Positions 3,845-38,466 of a stretch of 64,000 bases of DNA are shown here, in pieces (position 1 is the stretch's first letter; the number at the start of each line of letters is the position of its first letter). The notes beneath the pieces were generated by a model, which was not told the origin of the DNA, searched no databases, and saw nothing but the letters and a program-made list of their open reading frames with translations. Source of the DNA: Succinatimonas sp. CAG:777 (GTDB lineage Bacteria > Pseudomonadota > Gammaproteobacteria > Enterobacterales > Succinivibrionaceae); contig HF987965.1 in assembly GCA_000431835.1 (NCBI GenBank), forward strand, positions 18,199-82,198. Reading direction: 5' to 3'. The translations under genes were made by a program, and so were the position numbers.

Positions 3845-5917
3845 CTAATTATCTTTTTCTGCCTGATATTGCAGTAGCAATGGCTTTTCTTCGACTTCAT
3901 GAGCACCTGCTTTGTTGAGCATATCTGAGTAGTCGGAGGTAATATTTACTGTTTCCTGTAAAATCGGATCGTCATACTCAAAGTCGTCAGGCAAATCTTT
4001 TACAGACTTAACTTCTTTCTTATGCATTGCCTTAAGTCTGATATTGGTGTTCTTTAAGGTGATCTTCTCATCTTCATCGAACATTTTCTTACGCTCTTCA
4101 AAATTCAAGGTAAGAGTCTTGCTGTTCTTTAATTTATAGTAACGCTCTCTTTCAGACTGAATTACCTTAAAGACAGGATCAGTGCTGATTCTCTTTTCAT
4201 GCAGTGCCATCAGATCTTTAACAAAGAAGCTTGGATCTGAGTACTTCTGATATTTAGAAGGAGCAATCTTATCCCAATTTAAAGCATTAGGTTCAGTCTT
4301 TTCACCAAACTCAGTTACATCAATTAAAGTAGGCATAGCAATATCTGGAGTTACGCCCTTTAGCTGAGTTGAACCACCATTGATTCTGTAGAATTTGGCA
4401 ATAGTGTAGTGAATAGAGCCTAAATCAGCGCCGATGAGATCATAGAGTCTTGTAAGTGGACGAGACTGCTGCACAGTACCCTTACCGTAAGAGGTGTCAC
4501 CTACAATTAAAGCTCTACCATAATCCTGCAAAGCTGCAGCCATAATTTCAGAGCTTGATGCTGACAGTCTGTTGATTAAGACTACCAATGGACCTTTATA
4601 TAACATAGAAGCATCGGTGTCATCATAAGCAGACTCATTGCCGTTAACATCTCGAACTAAAACTACAGGACCATCTTTGATGAAAAGACCTGTAGTATAG
4701 ACAGCCTCAGGTAATAAACCACCACCGTTGTTTCTTAAATCAACGATAATACCGTCTACGTTCTCACTTTCTAACTTTGAAAGCTCGCGTTTTACATTTA
4801 AAGACAAGTCTGTATAGAAGCTAGAAATAGTGATTACGCCAATCTTTCTGCCATCATAAGAGGTATAAACCTTTGATTTTGCCTCTTTATCCTGAAGTCT
4901 AATCTTGTCACGTGTAAGTTCAACATTAAAGGTCTTAGCAGCAGCGCCTTCGCCACGCTCAATTTCAAGTACAACTTTAGTGCCCTTCTTACCTTTAATC
5001 TTTTTAACTACCTCAGTTAATCTCCAGCCAATGATATCCTCAAATTTGCCGTGTTCCTGTTTTACAGCAACGATCTTATCTTTTGGCTTTAACTTCTTTG
5101 ACTTTTCAGCAGGAGAGCCCGGCATAATCTGTACGATTACAGTGTATTCATCCTCTTGGGATAAAACTGCACCGATACCTTCTAGTGACAGGTTCATATC
5201 GTCATTGAAGTTTTCAGACTCCACAGGTCCAAAGTAATTGGTATGAGGATCGATTGCTGCTGCAAATGAATTTTCAAATGCAGAGAAAACATCTTCTGAA
5301 GAGTACTGAGAAATTCTTCTCATCGCTACAATGTAACGATTCTTAATACGTTCAACAGCCTGAGCTTTAGTTTTACCGTTTAAAAGCTGTGTTTCAAACT
5401 CATTTTTAAGCTCTGCCTTCCATAAAGACTTTAAATCATCTTCTGTTTTGGCAAATGGAGCTTTGGTTCTATCAAGAGCAATTGTCTCATTGGTATTTAA
5501 ATCAAGATTTTCAGAGACATTGTCGATCATGAACTTGTATTTCTGATAACGCTTTTTAATGTTTTCGTTATACAGAGAATAAGGATAATCAAGTTCACAC
5601 TTGTTAATACCATTTAAAATGCTCTTAGTATGAGCATAAATAGAATCAACTTCACTTTGTGTATAAAGAGAATGGTTCATATCAAGATAGTTCATGAGTC
5701 TGCCTATGACGTTTTTAGCAAAATCATCATTAACATCAACAATCTTGTAATGAGCTCTTGTGAAGTAATTGTATATTCTAGAACAGGATGTTTCGTGTCT
5801 TTCTTCAGGAGAGAGAACAGGCATCTGTTCTAAAGAAGGAACTGTAAGTTTTGCTTCACTTACAATAGCGTAGCCTACAAGAGCGCAGGCTACAGCTACT
5901 TTTATTATTTTATTCAC
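3845..5917 (-). CDS. prc: tail-specific (C-terminal processing) protease Prc (690 aa)
   Basis: Strong similarity to E. coli Prc throughout, including TNYxxP, LSLEGIGAVL, the PDZ region and the GKGTVQQ S41 active-site region. proQ-prc operon order as in E. coli. Confidence 0.95.
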   Translation of the reverse strand: MNKIIKVAVACALVGYAIVSEAKLTVPSLEQMPVLSPEERHETSCSRIYNYFTRAHYKIVDVNDDFAKNVIGRLMNYLDMNHSLYTQSEVDSIYAHTKSILNGINKCELDYPYSLYNENIKKRYQKYKFMIDNVSENLDLNTNETIALDRTKAPFAKTEDDLKSLWKAELKNEFETQLLNGKTKAQAVERIKNRYIVAMRRISQYSSEDVFSAFENSFAAAIDPHTNYFGPVESENFNDDMNLSLEGIGAVLSQEDEYTVIVQIMPGSPAEKSKKLKPKDKIVAVKQEHGKFEDIIGWRLTEVVKKIKGKKGTKVVLEIERGEGAAAKTFNVELTRDKIRLQDKEAKSKVYTSYDGRKIGVITISSFYTDLSLNVKRELSKLESENVDGIIVDLRNNGGGLLPEAVYTTGLFIKDGPVVLVRDVNGNESAYDDTDASMLYKGPLVVLINRLSASSSEIMAAALQDYGRALIVGDTSYGKGTVQQSRPLTRLYDLIGADLGSIHYTIAKFYRINGGSTQLKGVTPDIAMPTLIDVTEFGEKTEPNALNWDKIAPSKYQKYSDPSFFVKDLMALHEKRISTDPVFKVIQSERERYYKLKNSKTLTLNFEERKKMFDEDEKITLKNTNIRLKAMHKKEVKSVKDLPDDFEYDDPILQETVNITSDYSDMLNKAGAHEVEEKPLLLQYQAEKDN

Positions 5918-5929
5918 TTTAAGTTAGGC

Positions 5930-6616
5930 CTATTTTGCTTTTTTAGGAAGCAGAACTCTCTCAAGTGGAAGATTTACAGTAAGACCTGATTTTAAGGTTA
6001 CATATACAGTGTCTTTCTGAGCATTTTCAGCTACAACACCAAATACGAAACGCTGTTCTGAACTTAGAACTAAAACCTCAGTACCAGCTTTTAAGTCTTC
6101 TACTGTAGGCTTAATGCCATCAACCTTGTTAGGCTTCTTATGGAACTTAGCGCCATTTACAGGCTTCTTAAAATTCTTCTTGTTTACAGGAGATTTCTGA
6201 GGCTTAGATGCTTTACGCTTTGCGTTAATCTCATCGATGCGCTCTTTAGCATAAGTTGCGTGTTCTGCACTTACAGTATCACCACACTCATTACCATCGA
6301 TATCAATTCTTGGAGCACCTTCTTTTACGCTATATAAATACTTCAAGCGAGAAGTATATAAACGTAAAGCGGCTCTTACTTTTGAAATAGATAAACCTTC
6401 AACAGAAGCACACTTCTCTTTTAAATCCTCAAAGATACCAATCTTTAAAGGACGAGCCTCACCGTCTTTTACAAAAGCTTTTGGAAAGGTCTTGTATAAA
6501 AGTTCTAAGGTCTCTTTTACGTGTTCAAAATGAGTGCCTTCTTGAGCCTGAGTTTCAGTCTGCTTCTCAGCGTTTTTATTTAACTCTTGCTCTTTTTTGA
6601 TTTCCTGGGTTTCCAC
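5930..6616 (-). CDS. proQ: RNA chaperone ProQ (228 aa)
   Basis: GEARPLKIGIF...ALRLYTS motif of the ProQ/FinO N-domain. Basic linker and a C-terminal Hfq-like domain. Lies immediately upstream of prc. Confidence 0.9.
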   Translation of the reverse strand: METQEIKKEQELNKNAEKQTETQAQEGTHFEHVKETLELLYKTFPKAFVKDGEARPLKIGIFEDLKEKCASVEGLSISKVRAALRLYTSRLKYLYSVKEGAPRIDIDGNECGDTVSAEHATYAKERIDEINAKRKASKPQKSPVNKKNFKKPVNGAKFHKKPNKVDGIKPTVEDLKAGTEVLVLSSEQRFVFGVVAENAQKDTVYVTLKSGLTVNLPLERVLLPKKAK

Positions 6617-6806
6617 AAGAAACTCCTTAAAATAATTATTTAATAACTTACAATTATGCTCATTTTACAATAAGTTGAATTTTATTGCGAAAAATTTTGT
6701 CTAAAAGATTGTTCTAATGCACTAAAACTAAGACTTATAGCTTGAGTTGCTCAATTTTCTTGTTTTTACCCGCTGATATACAAGCTATTAAAAAAAAGGA
6801 TATAGA

Positions 6807-8650
6807 TCACTTTAGTTTCTTTACCGAAACTGCACAGTTTTTTCCTGAAAATGCTATACCTACAGCATTTACACAGGTAATGTTCTCATCTTCAAAAATA
6901 GTATCTGCATAGTGTTTTTCAAGGATCTGCTCAATAGCTTCATTAGCTTTTTTTGCTCTACTTTCTTTTTCTTTGCAGACTTTAATTTCAATAACACAAG
7001 ATTTAGTACCACCTAGATTATTAAAGGTAATATCTGCATAGCCATCACCTGCTTCATAATTAGAACGGTATTTACCAAGGTTATCTTTACAGTTAGTAAA
7101 GATACCGTTTAAGAATCCGTGGTAGTAATTCTCGTGAGGAGCTTTGGTTGCAGTATCTCTTACAGATACAAATGAACGTAATAGTGATCCTAACTTATCC
7201 TGTACGAAATCAAAATTACCTTCTAATAAGGCATTTGCCATGTTTAAAGCAAGGTTGTCTTTCTTTACAACATTACTAAACCTTGCTTTAATGTTTGAAT
7301 CAAAGCAATCTAAGATTTCTAAATTAGGAATTCTTGCGAAGACATTTTTATTAGTTGAATGGTCTTTAGATAACTCTTCATCATCTGACTTTTCCCAGTC
7401 TAGGGTCAGGTAACCTGTATGTAGGAGTAGTGACCAGAAATCATCAGAGTTATGCTCTGATAAAGTGTCATAGTTCATGGACTCGTTTAAATTAAAACTA
7501 ATTGACTTACCATCAACCAAGTTCTGCATCTTTTGATTGTCATTATCGGTTAAATAGCCTATGTAATCAGACAAAGAGTTATCAGAGGTCGAACCATTCC
7601 AGTAGTTACCTGTTTCAATTTCAGAAAGTTCACCACTTTGCTTAAAATCAAAGTTCTTTCTTACAAATTTAACTACATCCCAAGGACAGAACATCTCTTT
7701 GTCAAAGAACTTGTAGCCGTCATAATGTTCTTTTACTTTCTGAGCATAATCGTCTAACTCATAGTCTTTTAGAAATTGATAGGTTTCTTCTTTTGTAAAG
7801 CCTATGATATCTGTGTATTTCTTTTCTTTATCTGCGACACTGTTTACAGTAAAGTTATTTACACCTGTAAAGAGACTGTTCTTAGCTACCTTTAAGCATC
7901 CTGTGATAATTGTTTTGGTAAGAGCGTTTTTATTTTTTTAAATACCCAAAAAACCTTTCATTAAGGTTACCATTCGTGAATGATAATCTGCTTTAAATTC
8001 CTTATCATCTCCATACAGTTTTGTATTCTGTATGTCATGATATGAAACATTAGCTAAAGGTACATCGTACTCGTCTATAAGCAGTATTGGATACTTTTCG
8101 TACTCTTTATATAGAAAACTTGATAAATGTTTTAAAGAGTTTTTCACTCTCTGAGAGTTATTGATGTCTTCTAGATAATTGATATCTGTAAGCTGTCTTA
8201 AGATAACTTTGTCTGATTCATCAAGTTTATTGCTGTTTAGCAGGTAAGAATATCTTTTGGAAACATCAAAGACAATATCTGCAAACATCTTGTAAGCTTC
8301 TTCAAAGTTATTACCATCAACATCTTTTAAAGTAATATCAATAACAGGATACTGCCCCATGAACTTTGAACAGAACTCTTTGTCTTCTAGTATCTTGGTG
8401 CCTTGAAAGTACTTTTGCTGGAATGAAGTATCAAATGGCTTTTCAGGATCTATTTTTAAGAAAGACTGAACATGGTCATGAGCAGGGGCTTACCAAAACG
8501 TCTTGGTCTTGTAAACAACAGAACTTTGGCTGAATCTGTAAACACAGTCTTGATAAACTCTGTCTTGTCTACAAAGTAACCATTTTCATCTATCAGTTCT
8601 TCAAAACTGGTAGGACTTTCTGGTAAGGCTAAGAATTGTTGTCGCTCATT
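6807..8650 (-). pseudogene. decayed AAA-ATPase-like (PF09820-type) / PD-(D/E)XK nuclease (PF08011-type) gene, broken into at least 4 frame segments
   Basis: Minus-strand translation gives MSDNNS*. Then LPESPTSFEELIDENGYFVDKTEFIKTVF..RPRRFGKPLL in one frame, continuing in another frame into the ORF 7938-8360 (..IDEYDVPL..), and in a third frame (KNKNALTKTIITGCLKVAKNSLFTGVNNF) into ORF 6807-7694. The last segment ends with the ENYYHGFLNG...YRSNYEAGDGYADI...VIEIKV PD-(D/E)XK nuclease motifs. The N-terminal part resembles the second copy at 61786. Confidence 0.6.
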
Positions 8651-17631: not shown

Positions 17632-18480
17632 ATGTTAGACAGTGCTTTATATATTGTTCCTACTCCAATTGGTAATCTTGATGACATCACTTTACGAGCA
17701 ATTGAAGTTCTAAAAAACGCAACTTTAATTGCAGCTGAAGATACCAGACATTCAAAAATCTTATTAGATAAGTTAGGGATCTCTGGTAAAAAGATGATTA
17801 GCTGTCATGATCATAATGAGGAACAAAGAGCATCTATCATTATTGATGAAGTTAAAAATGGCGGTATCGTCGCTTTAATTTCTGATGCAGGCTCTCCTTT
17901 AATCAATGATCCTGGCTATAGAGTAGTAACACTATGCTCAAAAGCAGATGTAAGAGTAGTGCCACTACCAGGTCCATGTGCCTTAATTACAGCTCTTGAA
18001 GCTAGTGCATTACCTACAGACAAATTCATGTTCTTAGGCTTTTTCCCTGTAAAAGAAAAGGAATTAACAGAAAAGGTTCAGTCTCTAGAGAACGCAGATT
18101 ACACAGCTGTGTTCTATGAGACCCCACGTCGTATCGTCGATACCATGGAAATTGTAGGTAAGATTTTACCTGAGCATGATGTAACTTTATGCAGAGAGAT
18201 GACTAAGACATTTGAATCTTTCTATAGATTAAAAGCAAAGGATGCTGCTTCATTTTTAAAGGCAGATCCAGATAGAACCAAAGGTGAGTTTGTAGTAGCT
18301 ATCGGTTCATTAAAACAGGAAACATCCTCTGTTCCTGCTTCTGTAGTAAAAGCCATTTCAGAGCTTATCAAGACCTCTCCTGTAAAACAGGTTGCTAATG
18401 TCTTATCAGATCTTACTGGTATTAAAAAGAACGATTTATATAACCTAGCTTTGGATCTTAAAAACAAAAGCGATGAATAA
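17632..18480 (+). CDS. rsmI: 16S rRNA (cytidine1402-2'-O)-methyltransferase RsmI
   Basis: LYIVPTPIGNLDDITLRA...AAEDTRHS motifs of the tetrapyrrole-methylase-fold RsmI. The start is set at the internal Met matching the E. coli N-terminus. Confidence 0.9.
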   Translation: MLDSALYIVPTPIGNLDDITLRAIEVLKNATLIAAEDTRHSKILLDKLGISGKKMISCHDHNEEQRASIIIDEVKNGGIVALISDAGSPLINDPGYRVVTLCSKADVRVVPLPGPCALITALEASALPTDKFMFLGFFPVKEKELTEKVQSLENADYTAVFYETPRRIVDTMEIVGKILPEHDVTLCREMTKTFESFYRLKAKDAASFLKADPDRTKGEFVVAIGSLKQETSSVPASVVKAISELIKTSPVKQVANVLSDLTGIKKNDLYNLALDLKNKSDE

Positions 18481-30799: not shown

Positions 30800-32227
30800 A
30801 TGGAAAGTTCAAAGTTAAACTGCAATGTGCCTTTGATGCACAAAGTTAAAAGAATTCACTTTGTAGGTATCGGTGGTGCCGGCATGTGCGGTATTGCTGA
30901 GGTTTTAAGAAATGAAGGTTATGCAGTATCTGGTTCTGATATTGCATCATCTAAAGTTACCAAAAGATTAGAAAATTTAGGTATTACCGTATTTATTGGC
31001 CACAATGCATCTAATGTAAATGGCGCTAGCGTAGTTGTAGTGTCATCGGCAATTCATGAGGGTAATCCTGAGGTTGAGAGTGCTAGAGCTCTACATATTC
31101 CAGTGGTAAGGCGCGCTGAGATGTTAGGTGAGCTAATGCGTTACCGCTATGGTATTGCTATTAGTGGTACTCACGGAAAAACTACAACCACAAGTTTGAT
31201 TGCATCTATCTATGCTGCCGCAAAACTTGATCCTACCTTTGTTATAGGTGGCCTTTTAAACAGTGCTGGTACTAATGCTAGATTAGGTACAGGCAGATAT
31301 TTAATTGCCGAAGCTGACGAGTCAGATGCTTCTTTCTTACACTTACAGCCAATGATGACTGTTGTAACCAACATTGAGCCTGATCATTTAGATACTTATG
31401 GTGGTGATTTTAACTGTCTTAAAAAGACCTTTGTTGAGTTCTTACACAACTTGCCATTCTACGGTGTAGCCGTAGTTTGTGTTGATGATCCTAATGTAAG
31501 AGATATCATTCCCCAGATTGGCAGAACTGTTATTACCTATGGTGTAAGTGAAGATGCTGATTTTAGAGTAACAGATTTTAAAGAAACAGGTCCTCACAGC
31601 TCATTTACCTTAGTAAGAAAAGATGCAGCACCATTAAAGATTGAACTTCCAATTCCAGGTCTTCATATGGCAAAGAATGCAGCTGCTGCTATTGCTGTAG
31701 CATTAGAAGAAGGTATTGAAGGTGACGTTATCGTGCAGGCTTTAAAGAACTTTAAAGGTGTGGGCAGACGTTTCCAAAATTATGGTGAGTTTAAGACTAA
31801 AAAAGGCTGTACCTTAACCTTAGTAGATGACTACGGTCATCATCCAACTGAGGTTGATGCAACTATTAAAGCTGCAAGACAGGCATATCCTGACAAGAAA
31901 TTAGTTATGGTATTCCAACCTCACCGCTACACACGTACACGTGACTGCTATGAGGACTTTGTAAGAGTATTACAGCAGGTTGATAAGTTAATTTTAGTGG
32001 ATGTATATCCAGCAGGTGAACCCCCAATTCCAGGTGCCGATGGCAGACATTTATGTATGTCAATCAGATTGCAGGGTAAGATTGAACCTCACTTTGTGCA
32101 GACTGTAGATGAAGTACCTGCTCTTTTAGAAGAACTTGTTGAGGATAACTCATTAGTTCTGACTCAAGGCGCTGGTAACGTAGTACAGGTTGCCAAAAAC
32201 TTAAGTCAAATCTGGGAAAAGATTTAA
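30800..32227 (+). CDS. murC: UDP-MurNAc:L-alanine ligase MurC
   Basis: [12 protein letters not shown]-terminal motif. [10 protein letters not shown]-loop. Confidence 0.95.
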
Positions 32228-32244
32228 TTTAGGCTTTAAAGAGT

Positions 32245-33018
32245 ATGGCAGGCAGTAGACAGACAAGAGGTTACTTTATAGCAGGTGCATTGTTCCTGCT
32301 AATCCTGCTTATTGCCATCGTAAAAAGTGACTACATCATTCAGAATACACTGTCTAAAACTGGAGCATTACCAGTTAGGGCGGTGAAAATTGATGGAGTC
32401 TTCAGACAGATTACAAGAAAAGGCATAGCAGATGTTACTGGTAGGGTTTGCGCAGGTCAGAATATAGCAACACTAGACACTAATGTCTTAAAGACAGAAC
32501 TCATGAAAAATCCATGGGTAGCTCAGGTTGCTGTAAAGAAAAAAATGCCAGATACTATCGTATTATCTGTAATTGAACATGTACCTGCTGCCTACTGGAA
32601 TGATAATGGCATCTATGATGCCCGCACAAAATCAATTTTTTATCCGGATCTGTCACAATTTAGCCAACCATTAGTGAAACTTGGGTCATTTAGGGATAAT
32701 CTGTGCAATGAAGTTTACGACAGTGCGGTTTTGTTCATAAGAGCTATGAATGACAGTCCCTACCAGATGGTAGCTTTGTATTTGGATAAAGTAAGGTGTT
32801 ACACCATTACTTTAGATAATGGAACTAGGCTAATCTTAGGTAGAGGTCAGGACAAGGCTCTTAACCGACTAAAGAGATTTATAAGATCATTTAGTCACAC
32901 TGGACTTAGCATCGATGATGTCGATTATGTGGATTTAAGGTATGATGTGGGTTTTGCTGTAGGTAAGAGAGACGCTAACTCTAACAATACAGTACAGACT
33001 GACAGTGCAAACTATTAA
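32245..33018 (+). CDS. ftsQ: cell division protein FtsQ (POTRA)
   Basis: N-terminal TM then POTRA/beta domain (PVRAVKIDG..., WVAQVAVKKKMPDTIVLSV..E). Follows murC directly; no ddl is present between them. Confidence 0.8.
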   Translation: MAGSRQTRGYFIAGALFLLILLIAIVKSDYIIQNTLSKTGALPVRAVKIDGVFRQITRKGIADVTGRVCAGQNIATLDTNVLKTELMKNPWVAQVAVKKKMPDTIVLSVIEHVPAAYWNDNGIYDARTKSIFYPDLSQFSQPLVKLGSFRDNLCNEVYDSAVLFIRAMNDSPYQMVALYLDKVRCYTITLDNGTRLILGRGQDKALNRLKRFIRSFSHTGLSIDDVDYVDLRYDVGFAVGKRDANSNNTVQTDSANY

Positions 33019-33073: not shown

Positions 33074-34489
33074 ATGTTAAATATGAAGAAGAAAAACAAT
33101 AATGCAGTTGCAAAGAGTGATAAGGAAGAACTTATCACCGCCCTTGATATTGGTAGTAGTCATCTGCGTTTGTTATCAGGTTATGTAGGTCCTGATAAAC
33201 AGATTAGGATCAGAGGCTATAAAGAAATTAAGAGCGTTGGTTATTCTAATGGCGAAATTAACGATATTGGAAAACTGGCAGGCTCAATAGCTTCTATTGT
33301 GCAGCAGTTCCAGAATGAATATGGAATTGAGGTTAAAGATGTAGTAACTGGTGTTCCAGGTCACGTTATTCAGGGTGAAAATCAGCAGGGTAATATCACT
33401 GTAAGTTCAGGTCAGGTAACTGAAACTGATAGAAATAGGGCTATCGAAAACGCTGCTGCTGGTTTACAACAGTTAAACCGCAATGACTTTGTGGTAATTC
33501 ACAAAAATCCACAGAATTATTCAACCGAGTCATCAGAAAACATTGTTAACCCAATCGGCTTTTATGCTAAAAGACTTGATGTAAATGTCCATTTTATAGG
33601 TTGCAAAGGCTTATATAAAAAGAACATTGAACAAGCTGTCAGCATGATAAGTTCAAATATTCATACTAAGAATGTTATTTATGTAGGTAACGCAGTCTCT
33701 GCAGCTGCTATTACCGAAAATGAAAAAGAAATCGGTGTTATTCAGGCTGATATTGGCGGTGGTACCATCTCATTTACTGTGTATGATGCTGGTAAACAGT
33801 TAATCTCTCAGGGAATTTCTGATGGTGGTGACTATATTACCAATTCTATTGCAAGAGAGTTTGCTATTCCTAAACAGTCAGCAGAAGAGCTAAAACTCAA
33901 ATACGGCATAGCATCTCCTGATATCATCCCAGATGATCAGAAAAATTATCAACTTAAAGTTGAAGTTCCAACTCAGTTCTCAAATCAGACTGAAGAGGTA
34001 ACCATTACTTTAGGAGAGTTGTCTGCAGTTATCTACAGATGCTTAGGCAGCATGTTTGAACTTTTGTTCCAAAGAATAACAAGTCATGGTAAATCTTTCT
34101 TAAAATCTTTAGATATTGGTGCTGGTGTGGTGTTGACTGGTGGAACAGCCATGTTACGCGGTATTGATACAGTGCTATCAGACTACATCAACTATTACAG
34201 CCAGAATCCTGCTAATGAATTTTTACATTGCAACAGCAAGGTTCGTATTGGTGTACCTGTAGGCTTGAGAATGTGCGATGACATTCGAATTCCAAATGAA
34301 TTAAGAAGCTCAATGGCTCCTGGTATAGCTGCAAGACCAGATCAGGCTGTAGTTTTTGGACTTTTGAGAGTGGCTAAATTTGACAATTTAGAGCAATACT
34401 CAAATTCAAGAAGCAGAAACGACGATTCAGATGAAGTTGGAAAAGGTTTCCTTGGCAACTTTAAAAATTGGATGAAAAGAGAGTTATAG
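33074..34489 (+). CDS. ftsA: cell division protein FtsA (actin-like ATPase, 471 aa)
   Basis: LDIGSS phosphate-1 motif, DIGGGT and GGTAMLRGI motifs. C-terminal amphipathic membrane-targeting helix GFLGNFKNWMKREL. Confidence 0.9.
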   Translation: MLNMKKKNNNAVAKSDKEELITALDIGSSHLRLLSGYVGPDKQIRIRGYKEIKSVGYSNGEINDIGKLAGSIASIVQQFQNEYGIEVKDVVTGVPGHVIQGENQQGNITVSSGQVTETDRNRAIENAAAGLQQLNRNDFVVIHKNPQNYSTESSENIVNPIGFYAKRLDVNVHFIGCKGLYKKNIEQAVSMISSNIHTKNVIYVGNAVSAAAITENEKEIGVIQADIGGGTISFTVYDAGKQLISQGISDGGDYITNSIAREFAIPKQSAEELKLKYGIASPDIIPDDQKNYQLKVEVPTQFSNQTEEVTITLGELSAVIYRCLGSMFELLFQRITSHGKSFLKSLDIGAGVVLTGGTAMLRGIDTVLSDYINYYSQNPANEFLHCNSKVRIGVPVGLRMCDDIRIPNELRSSMAPGIAARPDQAVVFGLLRVAKFDNLEQYSNSRSRNDDSDEVGKGFLGNFKNWMKREL

Positions 34490-34600: not shown

Positions 34601-35968
34601 ATGAGCGATTTTCGTGTTGAATCAGTGTCAAATTCAAATGCAGGGAGCACTATCACTCCTTCAGGAAAATGTGTTATCAGAGTATTAGGCATCGGTGGCG
34701 GTGGCGGTAACTCACTACAGCACATGATTAATGACAGTCTTTCAGGTGTGGAGTTTATTGCTGTAAACACCGACTCTCAGGCTCTTTCTAAGTCAACTTC
34801 ACCATTAAAGGTTCAGATTGGTGTTAAGTTAACAAACGGTCTTGGTGCAGGTTGTGATCCTAATAAGGGTCGTAAAGCAGCTGAGGAAAGCAAGGAAGAC
34901 ATCAAGAAGTTGATTCAGGGATCTGACATGGTATTTATCACCGCAGGTATGGGCGGTGGCACTGGTACTGGTGCAGCTCCTATTATTGCAGAGATCGCAA
35001 AAGAAACCGGTGCTCTTACAGTTGCAGTTGTAACTAAGCCATTTAAGTTTGAAGGCAAGAGACATATGGTTAATGCCGAGTCTGGTATTACCGAGCTTTC
35101 AAAGCATGTTGATTCTTTAATTGTTATTGATAACGACAAGTTATTAAAGAACTTAGGTGCAAACATTTCTATTGTTAACGCATTTAATGCAGCAAATGAT
35201 GTGCTGTTAAATGCAGTTAAGGGTATTACTGACGCTATCACAAGCCCAGGTTACATCAACCTTGACTTTGCTGATGTTGTAACCGTAATGCGTGGTCGTG
35301 GTCATGCAATGATCGGCAACGGTGTAGGTCAGGGCGCAAACTTTGTTGAGGACGCTGTAGATAGAGCTATCCATTCACCTCTAATTGAGCAGGTTGATAT
35401 CAAGTCAGCAGCAGGCTTACTTGCAAATGTTCGTGTTAACCCTAACTTCCCAATTGCAAAATGGGAAGAAATTTGTAACGCAATTCAGTCATATGCTGAT
35501 GAAGAGGCAGATTGCAAGTTTGGTATGAGCTTTGACGATTCTATCGCTGAAGATCAGGTTGCAATTACCATCTTAATTACAGGTATCAGCGCAACAGACA
35601 ATACTTTAGCAGCTAATAAGCCTCGTCCAAATACTGTTGAAGGCTTAAACCGCCCTGCAATGCCAGGTACAAGACCTGCTGCAAGAGGTTTCTTCACACA
35701 GGCAAGAACTGATGCTGCTCCACAGCCATTCACTGCTTCACAGCCACAACAACCACAGCAACAGCCTCAGCAGCACGCTCAGACATCAGATCCATTTGCT
35801 CAGACTGCATATAATGGTAGCTTTGGCTCGGCAGCTCCACAGGAGCCAACCTTTACAGGTTTAAAGAGCGCAACTGAAGTCCCTGTAGACAGCTTTGGTA
35901 AGAGCCCTGCTGAAGACAACAGCAACATTTGGGAATTACCTCCAATCTTACGTTCAAAGTCTGAATAA
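34601..35968 (+). CDS. ftsZ: cell division GTPase FtsZ (canonical copy; long Q/P-rich linker and conserved C-terminal peptide)
   Basis: Tubulin signature GGGTGTG, T7 loop NLDFAD, QPQQPQQQPQQ linker. C-terminal ELPPILRSK resembles the FtsA/ZipA-binding peptide (DIPAFLRKQ in E. coli). Confidence 0.95.
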   Translation: MSDFRVESVSNSNAGSTITPSGKCVIRVLGIGGGGGNSLQHMINDSLSGVEFIAVNTDSQALSKSTSPLKVQIGVKLTNGLGAGCDPNKGRKAAEESKEDIKKLIQGSDMVFITAGMGGGTGTGAAPIIAEIAKETGALTVAVVTKPFKFEGKRHMVNAESGITELSKHVDSLIVIDNDKLLKNLGANISIVNAFNAANDVLLNAVKGITDAITSPGYINLDFADVVTVMRGRGHAMIGNGVGQGANFVEDAVDRAIHSPLIEQVDIKSAAGLLANVRVNPNFPIAKWEEICNAIQSYADEEADCKFGMSFDDSIAEDQVAITILITGISATDNTLAANKPRPNTVEGLNRPAMPGTRPAARGFFTQARTDAAPQPFTASQPQQPQQQPQQHAQTSDPFAQTAYNGSFGSAAPQEPTFTGLKSATEVPVDSFGKSPAEDNSNIWELPPILRSKSE

Positions 35969-35984
35969 GATTGCAATGATTAAA

Positions 35985-36016
35985 TAAAAAACGGAGCATA
36001 AGCTCCGTTTTTTTGT
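35985..36016 (+). terminator. rho-independent terminator after ftsZ
   Basis: Hairpin acggagc-ataa-gctccgt followed by a T8 run. Confidence 0.75.
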
Positions 36017-36117
36017 CAGAGCAAAACCAAAATAGACATACTTTCCGACTAATACTTATCCTTTACATTTTTCTCTTATTCAATAAGTGTGCAATACACA
36101 TAAATATCAGCCTGAGG

Positions 36118-36145
36118 TTGCAAAATAAAACTTATTTTTTATAAT
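36118..36145 (+). promoter_or_regulatory. putative sigma70 promoter for the second ftsZ paralog
   Basis: TTGCAA - 16 nt - TATAAT, about 35 bp upstream of the ATG at 36181. Confidence 0.45.
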
Positions 36146-36180
36146 GTCATTCAATATAAACTTGCGGAGCCAAGAGATAA

Positions 36181-37230
36181 ATGAGTGATGTTAAAGTAGA
36201 AAACGATATTAACATGCAGGGAGATACCATTACTCCTTCATGTGGCTGTGTAATTAGAGTCATCGGCGTCGGCGGTGGCGGTAATAACGCACTGCAGTAT
36301 ATGATGGATAAAAATTTAGCTGGTGTAGAGTGCATGGCTATCAATACTGATCCTCAGACTCTTGAAAGAACCAATGCAAAATTAAAAGTTCAGATTGGTG
36401 TAAGAACCACCAATGGTTTAGGTGCAGGCTGCGATCCTAATAAGGGACGTAAGGCTGCTGAAGAGAGCTATGAGGATATTAAAAAGTTACTCTCAGGCTC
36501 TGATATGGTATTTATTACAGCTGGCATGGGCGGTGGTACCGGCACTGGAGCCTCCCCAATTGTCGCCAAAGTTGCTAAAGAAGTTGGAGCCTTAACAGTT
36601 GCTATCGTAACTCAGCCTTTCTCTTTTGAAGGTAAACGTCACCGTATCAATGCAATGGCTGGTATCAGTGAGCTTGCTAAAAACGTTGATTCCATCATTA
36701 TTGTTGATAATGACAAGTTATTAAGAAACTTAGGCCCGAACGTATCTTTAAAGAATGCCTTTGAAAAAGCAAATGATGTTTTATATCAGGCAGTAGAAGG
36801 TATTACCTCAGCTATTACAAACACAGGTTTTATCAACCTTGATTTTGCTGATATCGTAACCGTAATGAGAAACAGCGGTTTGGCTATGATTGGCTCATCT
36901 GAAGGTCAGGGACCAAACTTAGTTGAAGATACTGTAAGAAAGGCAATCAACTCCCCATTAGTTGATAACGTAAACTTAGGTTCAGCTACTGGCCTAATTG
37001 CTAATATCAGAGTAAGCCAGAATATTCCTGTAAATCTGTTGTCTGAAGTTTGCGACGCCATTCAGGCATACGCTCGTGAGGATGCAACATGTAAGTTTGG
37101 TCTGTATTTTGATGACAAACTTGATGACGGTAAGATTGTTGCTACAGTTTTAGTAACCGGTATCAGTTCAACTGATATTGATTTACCTTCAAATCAGGCT
37201 ATCAACAGATTAAATCCTGCAAATAATTAG
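36181..37230 (+). CDS. FtsZ paralog (349 aa): intact GTPase core, no C-terminal linker or conserved C-terminal peptide
   Basis: About two-thirds identical to the upstream ftsZ over the core ([24 protein letters not shown] all kept). Ends ...[26 protein letters not shown] with no downstream coding continuation in any frame. Has its own promoter and terminator. Confidence 0.85.
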
Positions 37231-37292
37231 ATAAAAATCTTGAGATAAACAGGTTATAAACCTGATAAAAATCGGATTATACATACGATAAA

Positions 37293-37330
37293 GTCGTAAT
37301 TGCACTAGACAGGTAATTACGCTTTTTTTT
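37293..37330 (+). terminator. possible rho-independent terminator after the ftsZ paralog
   Basis: Stem cgtaatt...aattacg (13-nt loop) followed by cttttttttat. Confidence 0.4.
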
Positions 37331-37527
37331 ATAAATTTAAGAAAATAATTAAATTTTAAATTGTCGCTTTCTGCTAATTTTTACCTAAGAATAAGCGACT
37401 AATATCACATGTAGCAAATAAAAGATCTGTAAACTATTGTTTAACTTAATGTTAAAAATGTTCGCTAGATCGCAAAAAAGTTATATAATGTGTGCAGTTC
37501 TGCACCACATTGGCGTGAGGTATTCAA

Positions 37528-38466
37528 ATGATCAAGCAGAGAACAATCCTAAAACCTGTATCTATGACAGGTATCGGTCTTCATTCTGGTGCTAAAGTAG
37601 AAGTGGCTTTCAGACCAGCTCCTGCTAATACCGGTCTTGTTTATACTCGCACAGATTTAAATCCAGCCGTAACAATTAAGTGTAATGCAGACTCTGTAAG
37701 AGATACTCAGTTATGTACTGCACTTGTCAATGATAATGGCGTAAGAATTTCAACTGTTGAGCATCTTACAGCTGCTTTAAGCTCATTAGGTATTGATAAC
37801 CTTTTTATTGATGTCAATGCGCCTGAAATTCCTGTAATGGATGGTTCAGCTCAACCATTTATCTATTTGTTCGGTACAACAGGGATCAAAGAATTATCTG
37901 CTCCTAAAAAGTTTTTAAGAGTTGCTCGTAAGGTTCGTGTAGAAAACGAAGGTAAGTGGGCAGAATTAACTCCATCAGAGAGTGGTTTCCATTTAGATTT
38001 ACAAATCGATTTTAACCACCCTGCAATGGATAGAGATAAGCAGCACTTTGCAATGGACTTTACAGGTCAGAGATTTGCAAGTGAAGTATCTCGTGCTCGT
38101 ACCTTCTGCTTTATGCGTGATGTTGAATTCATGCATGCTCATAACTTAGCTTTAGGCGGTTCATTAGAAAACGCTGTGGTTTTAGATGACAACAGAGTAA
38201 TTAACCCTGAAGGTTTACGTTATGAAGACGAATTCGTAAAGCACAAGTTATTAGATGCAATCGGTGATCTGTATATGGATGGTCACAGCATCCTTGGTAA
38301 TTTCAAAGCTTACAAGACTGGTCATGATTTAAACAACCGTCTATTAAGAGCATTCTTAGCAGATCCTAAGAACTATGAAGTTATCGAATTTACAAATGAA
38401 ATTGCTGAAAGCCCTGAACATGCTATTGATTTTCTTGATAGCAAGAAAGCACTAAGAGCCTTTTAA
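37528..38466 (+). CDS. lpxC: UDP-3-O-acyl-GlcNAc deacetylase LpxC
   Basis: MIKQRTLK..SGIGLHSGxKV and HxxxxxxAxxGD-type zinc-site motifs. Position after ftsZ as in E. coli. Confidence 0.95.

Follow-up and report, generated by a model that had tools for sequence, protein, structure and literature searches.

A tail-less FtsZ paralog encoded directly after ftsZ in the division cluster of Succinatimonas sp. CAG:777 (Succinivibrionaceae)

Introduction

Why would a bacterium with a complete ftsZ gene keep a second ftsZ directly after it, ending shortly past the globular domain? This question is raised by a 64,000-nucleotide stretch of DNA from Succinatimonas sp. CAG:777 (Gammaproteobacteria, Succinivibrionaceae; GenBank assembly GCA_000431835.1, contig HF987965.1, forward-strand positions 18,199 to 82,198), the whole of which is called the window herein. 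The window includes the 3' end of a division and cell wall (dcw) cluster in the order murG, murC, ftsQ, ftsA, ftsZ1, ftsZ2, lpxC, ampD and acnB. An initial annotation, made from the sequence alone, had placed two tandem ftsZ genes between ftsA and lpxC, and both were found where it had put them (Table 1). The first is named ftsZ1 and the second ftsZ2.

The ftsZ2 gene is real and intact, is under purifying selection across several species, encodes a tail-less protein, and is flanked by conserved terminator and promoter signals. Its position is indeed unusual for a gammaproteobacterial dcw cluster, as the initial annotation had remarked. Literature searches for ftsZ duplication in Succinivibrio or in Gammaproteobacteria found nothing relevant. 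In public metagenome-assembled genome (MAG) annotations, both genes are labelled simply "cell division protein FtsZ", and this uniform label hides the paralogy.

Results

FtsZ2 retains the globular domain and lacks the tail

FtsZ1 and FtsZ2 share 64% identity and 82% positives over 340 amino acids (aa) (BLASTP, E 3e-142), which agrees with the earlier estimate of about two-thirds identity. Both proteins carry PF00091 and PF12327, for which FtsZ2 scored 164 and 54 bits, and both exceed the cut-off of the TIGR00065 ftsZ equivalog (394 bits for FtsZ1 and 359.7 bits for FtsZ2 vs 295.2 bits). The GGGTGTG motif (FtsZ2 residues 117-123) and the T7 loop NLDFAD (residues 219-224) are both intact, as first read. 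No variation was seen at the G-box or at the catalytic T7 residues N219, D221 and D224 in an alignment of 32 family sequences. When FtsZ2 was searched against the PDB with phmmer, residues 22-330 were aligned to residues 11-317 of Klebsiella/E. coli FtsZ with a single 1-residue gap (E 1e-85). The protein thus ends 21 residues past the globular domain. The AlphaFold2 model of FtsZ2 had a pLDDT (predicted local distance difference test score) of 84.9; residues 20-331 were confident, and residues 1-19 and 332-349 fell below 50 and were disordered. All top 50 Foldseek matches of this model were FtsZ, the best of them with target TM scores of 0.92-0.94.

The linker and the FtsA/ZipA-binding peptide of the canonical four-part FtsZ architecture are missing from FtsZ2, in keeping with the initial annotation. 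Both elements are carried by FtsZ1 and by all other second copies of Succinivibrionaceae outside the window's clade. A frameshift or a hidden tail was ruled out by translation of positions 37151-37540 in all frames and by tblastn. The 297 bases before lpxC (37231-37527) have stop codons throughout all three frames and encode no PPILR-type peptide. The sole tblastn match of the FtsZ1 linker or C-terminal peptide was ftsZ1 itself, with no tail remnant downstream of ftsZ2. The C-terminal stub of FtsZ2 is conserved about as well as the core (12 of 20 residues identical between the window and the distant lineage L001), whereas in the same genomes the linker of FtsZ1 can hardly be aligned.

The longitudinal-interface loops of the two proteins were then compared. 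The T3 loop is identical, and the T7/H8 segment INLDFAD(V/I)VTVM has one conservative change. This near-identity lends indirect support to a predicted co-polymerisation of FtsZ2 with FtsZ1. The fixed differences between FtsZ1 and FtsZ2 concentrate in two places, the C-terminal subdomain and the H1-S2 region. At 22 positions that are conserved elsewhere in the family, FtsZ2 carries clade-fixed differences, most of them in the C-terminal subdomain. A PADLOC scan of FtsZ2 gave no match, and the protein is not a defence-system protein by this measure.

A second conserved tail segment (QEPTF...EVPVDSFGKSPAED) was observed in FtsZ1, upstream of the C-terminal peptide (residues ~404-455, window 35810-35965). 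It is common to distant Succinivibrio FtsZ1 proteins with otherwise unalignable linkers, is absent from the 402-aa second copy of S. dextrinosolvens, and could serve for binding a further partner.

Conserved terminator and promoter signals around ftsZ2

A rho-independent terminator and a TTGCAA-16-TATAAT promoter had been proposed between the two genes, and both stood up to comparison. The hairpin 3' of ftsZ1 and its T tract fold at -22.3 kcal/mol (z = -6.1 vs shuffled sequence). Across five species-level genomes, with synonymous divergence of 0.2-1.3, its stems are invariant and its loop is variable; 65% of its positions are invariant vs 18-21% in the flanking spacer. A consensus terminator scanner missed this hairpin because its T run pairs with an A run.

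The best promoter-like site of the region consists of a -35 element TTGCAA (36118-36123), a 16-nt spacer and a -10 element TATAAT (36140-36145), with 10 of the 12 positions matching. Promoter-like sites were no more frequent here than in shuffled sequence, and the case for this promoter therefore lies in its conservation, the match by itself proving little. In the same five genomes, 62 of 75 positions in the ftsZ2 upstream block, which runs from the -35 region up to the start codon, do not vary. Shine-Dalgarno-like motifs, GGAG (36166-36169) and AAGAGA (36172-36177), lie within this block. A search of the conserved spacer block against Rfam gave no credible family, the sole match being SorY at 21 bits vs a gathering score of 111.

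The hairpin 3' of ftsZ2 lies within a fold of positions 37231-37340 with z = -3.2. It is kept in the window and in three relatives (L005, L007 and L008), whereas the surrounding spacer is not; the L001/L003 lineage has a different hairpin at the same place. Independent transcription of ftsZ2 from ftsZ1 is well supported as a prediction from these sequences.

Distribution and selection

The order ftsA-ftsZ1-ftsZ2-lpxC was found in at least eight independent assemblies from about seven species-level lineages, and the tail-less second gene encodes 348-351 aa in all of them. The carriers comprise four GTDB species representatives (L005-L008), among them one MAG from the Hadza gut and one from the rumen; the Logan contig L004, 99.4% identical to the window over 10 kb; and, at a greater distance, the lineages L001/L002 and L003. 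We read the source of the window as an uncultured Succinivibrio of the gut or rumen. The FtsZ2 cluster at 90% identity contains 398 member sequences, one of which is present on 568 contigs. A single-protein scan of genome contigs returned close FtsZ2 orthologues only (95-97%) and then unrelated phyla, and is thus no census of the family.

Among FtsZ2 orthologues, the ratio of nonsynonymous to synonymous divergence (dN/dS) lies at 0.02-0.04 when the pairs are close and does not exceed 0.10 when they are distant. For FtsZ1, dN/dS is 0-0.05. The FtsZ1 core is 94-100% identical across Succinivibrio, and reaches 100% identity even in species that already stand at a synonymous divergence of 0.22. 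For the same genome pair, dN is 0.23 in FtsZ2 vs 0.043 in FtsZ1, which corresponds to ~5x faster protein evolution in FtsZ2. The effective number of codons (ENC) of ftsZ1 and ftsZ2 is similar (37.9 vs 40.0), a difference too small for inferring relative expression.

The synonymous divergence itself was 2-3x lower in ftsZ1 than in ftsZ2 for the same pairs (0.22 vs 0.62 and 0.58 vs 1.08; positions 34601-35605 vs 36181-37227). Selection on synonymous sites or recombination could account for the low value in ftsZ1. Among database proteins, P0002 (ENA, 337 aa) is identical to the window FtsZ2 from about residue 150, and its N-terminal part is like an unrelated FtsZ, which we take to be Firmicutes-like from a reading of the sequence. 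P0002 is most likely a metagenome mis-assembly.

Second ftsZ copies in Succinivibrionaceae and their history

A second ftsZ between ftsZ and lpxC is present in several Succinivibrionaceae lineages (Table 1), and a single ftsZ precedes lpxC in L074, a Succinivibrio lineage. The other second copies (402, 456, 472 and 604 aa) resemble ftsZ2 in occupying the same slot, in carrying the same N-terminal extension and in evolving faster than the first copy. They differ in retaining the linker and a PPIL/PTIL-type peptide, and the trees do not unite the second copies into one clade. Because all second copies outside the window's clade keep linker and peptide, the tail loss is read as a derived, clade-specific event in one Succinivibrio subclade, and the duplication itself as wider.

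The initial annotation had taken the shared N-terminal extension as a mark of lineage-specific duplication. This did not hold. The extension (MSDF.V...) occurs in FtsZ throughout Succinivibrionaceae, including Anaerobiospirillum, and is therefore uninformative on recent duplication. The phylogeny also speaks against a lineage-specific event. In neighbour-joining trees (100-200 bootstraps; no alphaproteobacterial sequence was placed in them), the tail-less clade was monophyletic in 200/200 bootstraps. The branch of tail-less FtsZ2 was long and lay outside the Succinivibrio FtsZ1 clade, and FtsZ2 was never sister to the FtsZ1 of its own genome. It grouped with the other second copies in only 0-4/200 bootstraps. 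The fast-evolving second copies formed a basal grade, and long-branch attraction is therefore possible. Pairs of second-copy groups have 2-4 derived states in common, and the group Z2a has 4 with each other group. The neighbour-joining trees and these counts of shared derived residues do not discriminate between one old duplication and several, with long-branch attraction a real concern. Because the 402-aa copy of S. dextrinosolvens has 6 of 7 Succinivibrio-specific FtsZ1 states, it may be either younger or gene-converted.

The best 120 of 7,998 matches to FtsZ2 are all FtsZ (57-99% identity), and every source-named one is from Succinivibrionaceae. The trees place FtsZ2 inside Succinivibrionaceae or at its base. 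The duplication that gave rise to it appears to be independent of the alphaproteobacterial duplicates, and FtsZ2 would work like these, but outside that lineage.

Several further arrangements were observed in the family. In the complete S. dextrinosolvens genome (L061:7572-11298), ftsZ1 and the 402-aa copy are separated by an insert of one IS605 OrfB/TnpB-type gene and two NMT1-family genes; the same interval of L060 and L062 holds the NMT1 pair but no insertion sequence. In L071, the first ftsZ (4531-5784, 417 aa) ends in the E. coli-like MQVPDFLLHRN and the second (6001-7419, 472 aa) in the family-type IWLVPTILRNRAD, and the two copies therefore have different tether peptides. The 604-aa copy (L072:7615-9429) has a Q/N/P-rich linker of ~260 residues before LELPPILNRRIR, the longest tail of the series.

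In another Succinivibrionaceae MAG lineage, the only ftsZ between ftsA and lpxC encodes a tail-less protein of 348 aa (L063:3930-4976, L064:2326-3372 and L065:1352-2398). This protein is identical in the three assemblies and 80% identical to the FtsZ1 core. No tail remnant was found in the 184-bp spacer, and a hairpin follows the gene. Its closest relative found, P0079 (458 aa), has a normal tail. These sequences hint that tethering in the family may not proceed solely via the canonical C-terminal peptide.

Organisation of the locus

The features of the locus are given in Table 1. FtsA scored 218 bits against TIGR01174 (cut-off 176). It is long and divergent, and against the enterobacterial-type FtsA model NF007009, which has its cut-off at 409 bits, it reached only 169 bits. 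Its C-terminus (...GKGFLGNFKNWMKREL) resembles an amphipathic membrane-targeting helix, as judged from its residues. In E. coli-type dcw clusters, ddlB sits between murC and ftsQ. It is absent from this place in the window (30800-33018) and in all family members inspected, including L001, L060, L068 and L072.

Table 1 Features of the ftsZ1-ftsZ2 locus in the window and second ftsZ copies of other Succinivibrionaceae.
Feature	Position	Strand	Description
ftsA	33074..34489	+	471 aa; presumed membrane tether binding the FtsZ C-terminal peptide; TIGR01174, PF14450, PF02491
ftsZ1	34601..35968	+	455 aa; N-terminal extension, globular domain, Q/P-rich linker of ~105 aa, C-terminal peptide
FtsZ1 C-terminal peptide	35924-35965	+	NIWELPPILRSKSE; contains ELPPILRSKSE
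ftsZ1 hairpin, intrinsic-terminator-like	35986..36014	+	AAAAAACGGAGC-ATAA-GCTCCGTTTTTT and T tract, directly 3' of ftsZ1
ftsZ2 conserved upstream block	36106..36180	+	promoter-like site and Shine-Dalgarno-like motifs
ftsZ2	36181..37230	+	349 aa; tail-less FtsZ paralog
FtsZ2 N-terminal extension	residues 1-21		family extension
FtsZ2 globular domain	residues 22-328		complete GTPase/polymerisation domain
FtsZ2 stub	residues 329-349		conserved
ftsZ2 3' hairpin, terminator-like	37291..37331	+	CGTAATT...AATTACG and T tract
lpxC	37528..38466	+	usual ftsZ neighbour at the 3' end of gammaproteobacterial dcw clusters; preceded by a conserved region of its own that contains TATAAT
Second copy, S. dextrinosolvens, complete genome CP047056			402 aa; peptide WNLPPILNSKNDF; IS605-type gene and two NMT1 genes between it and ftsZ1
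Second copy, Ca. Anaerobiospirillum merdipullorum			456 aa; peptide LWVVPPILRGRAD
Second copy, MAG L071			472 aa; peptide IWLVPTILRNRAD
Second copy, lineage L072/L073			604 aa; peptide LELPPILNRRIR

Discussion

A proposed role in the Z-ring

We lean towards the reading that FtsZ2 co-assembles with FtsZ1, does not bind FtsA, and thereby tunes or restrains the Z-ring. FtsZ2 keeps all elements for GTP binding, GTP hydrolysis and head-to-tail assembly. Without the disordered linker and the C-terminal peptide, it would be without tethering via FtsA and without the binding of other regulators. FtsZ2 would enter the Z-ring by co-polymerising with FtsZ1, encoded just upstream. This would be its only way in, because it lacks both an FtsA-binding peptide and a membrane-targeting sequence, and no partner gene lies next to it. 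A tail-less subunit would lower the density of tethers and linkers along the filament. The lower tether density would tune the ring dynamics and, at a high dose of FtsZ2, would restrain division. For FtsZ2 we infer that it polymerises, that it assembles together with FtsZ1, that it does not bind FtsA and that it affects division.

Known truncated paralogs provide the comparison. Those of Hyphomicrobiales (A. tumefaciens FtsZ1 and the Rhizobiaceae/Phyllobacteraceae group, with Sinorhizobium FtsZ2 as another of this type) coexist with a full-length FtsZ and have no C-terminal peptide, like FtsZ2. They likewise consist of an N-terminal peptide and the GTPase domain with at most a partial linker, and have been maintained over long evolutionary time. 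Truncated A. tumefaciens FtsZ1 does not polymerise alone; it co-polymerises with full-length FtsZ_AT, which is needed for mid-cell localisation (bioRxiv 10.1101/412759). The Hyphomicrobiales duplicates are described as lying outside the dcw operon, whereas ftsZ2 lies inside the cluster between ftsZ1 and lpxC. FtsZ2 is also of independent origin by its nearest relatives, all of them Succinivibrionaceae FtsZs, and its host is an animal-gut gammaproteobacterium in contrast to a plant-associated alphaproteobacterium.

The closest mechanistic analogue of the proposed role is the FtsZ1/FtsZ2 pair of chloroplasts and the green lineage, in which a two-type ring includes one type without the tether-binding peptide. 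Chloroplast FtsZ1 tunes the stability of FtsZ2 filaments, and in the mixed FtsZ polymer it modulates both stability and turnover (PMC3494859, PMC8142252). The chloroplast pair differs in that it stems from an ancient eukaryote/cyanobacterium-derived duplication, that both members are required, and that chloroplast FtsZ1 retains a C-terminal extension. FtsZm of magnetotactic Magnetospirillum, whose gene lies among magnetosome genes and whose role is in magnetosome biology, resembles FtsZ2 as a tail-less FtsZ paralog in a proteobacterium. In contrast, ftsZ2 lies in a division cluster (neighbours ftsA, ftsZ1, lpxC, ampD and acnB), and no organelle genes are close to it. The two FtsZs of Magnetospirillum each polymerise and seem to interact (bioRxiv 10.1101/412759).

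Several points weigh against Z-ring tuning by co-assembly. A core identity of 64% is no guarantee of mixed filaments, and the 22 fixed differences at family-conserved positions could alter partner or lateral contacts. The near-consensus promoter could give high constitutive expression, and, by analogy with tail-less FtsZ mutants, high expression of a simple poison subunit could be toxic. The codon bias of the two genes is too alike to tell their relative expression.

Alternative explanations

A sharper version of the co-assembly idea makes FtsZ2 a conditional division inhibitor, a regulated 'poison' subunit that delays septation. A subunit without the C-terminal peptide could not be tethered, and ftsZ2 has its own conserved promoter and a conserved terminator insulating it from ftsZ1. 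The promoter, however, looks like a strong housekeeping sigma-70 promoter, in which no recognisable regulator site was identified, and no sign of stress control was seen. Over-expression of truncated A. tumefaciens FtsZ1 blocks division (bioRxiv 10.1101/2025.09.29.679267), which fits an inhibitor. We regard this version as unlikely.

Another explanation is that FtsZ2 assembles into a distinct cytoskeleton apart from the Z-ring, for example for the curved or helical cell shape of Succinivibrio and Anaerobiospirillum. It would then resemble FtsZm for magnetosomes or CetZ for archaeal cell shape. The named genera of Succinivibrionaceae are mostly curved or spiral, and second FtsZ copies occur in several lineages of the family. 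The ~5x higher dN of FtsZ2 and its 22 clade-fixed differences, mostly in the C-terminal subdomain, would also suit a new structure. However, the interface loops are almost identical to those of FtsZ1, the locus is the division cluster, and neither a membrane-targeting element nor an adjacent gene for a tethering partner is present. The other second copies share a PPILR-type peptide with the division FtsZ, pointing to the same partners. These observations make a separate cytoskeleton quite improbable.

The gene might also be a decaying duplicate, a recently truncated pseudogene-in-waiting without function, since ftsZ2 is shorter than every other second copy of the family and evolves faster than ftsZ1. 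The purifying selection on it (dN/dS 0.02-0.10) ruled out pseudogene status. The reading frame is intact at 348-351 aa even in lineages whose FtsZ2 is only ~70% identical, and the stub, the promoter block and the terminators are conserved, which leaves decay with very little probability. An assembly or binning artefact, suggested by the metagenomic origin of the window and most relatives and by the obvious chimera P0002, has a negligible chance: the arrangement recurs in at least eight independent assemblies from different samples and assemblers, a comparable pair stands in the complete S. dextrinosolvens genome CP047056, and at the DNA level identity between the two genes is only about 68-69%, because of which repeat-induced misassembly is no concern. 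The assembly artefact and the frameshift that had been named beforehand as possible objections are thus both excluded, by the independent assemblies, the low DNA identity and the frame translation.

Significance

Truncated FtsZ paralogs are already known in other bacteria, and the window is a new example and not a new principle. What is new is the independent origin in Gammaproteobacteria, the position inside the dcw cluster directly after ftsZ, and a family series of differing tail states. Why truncated FtsZ paralogs are retained has yet to be settled for the small number of lineages studied, to which the window adds an independent gammaproteobacterial case. The carriers belong to Gammaproteobacteria that are abundant in human and ruminant gut communities. 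The main interest for the division field lies in the natural graded series in the same slot, which runs from the four second copies with a tail to the 349-aa protein without one, and which can be used for testing the contribution of the linker and the C-terminal peptide in mixed filaments.

For the family as a whole, a broader proposal, speculative and improbable at present, is that an old tandem duplication in the dcw cluster of Succinivibrionaceae gave a regular heteropolymer partner and a two-FtsZ ring, as a bacterial counterpart of chloroplast FtsZ1/FtsZ2. If this is true, the window's clade would show that such a partner works without the linker or the membrane-tethering peptide.

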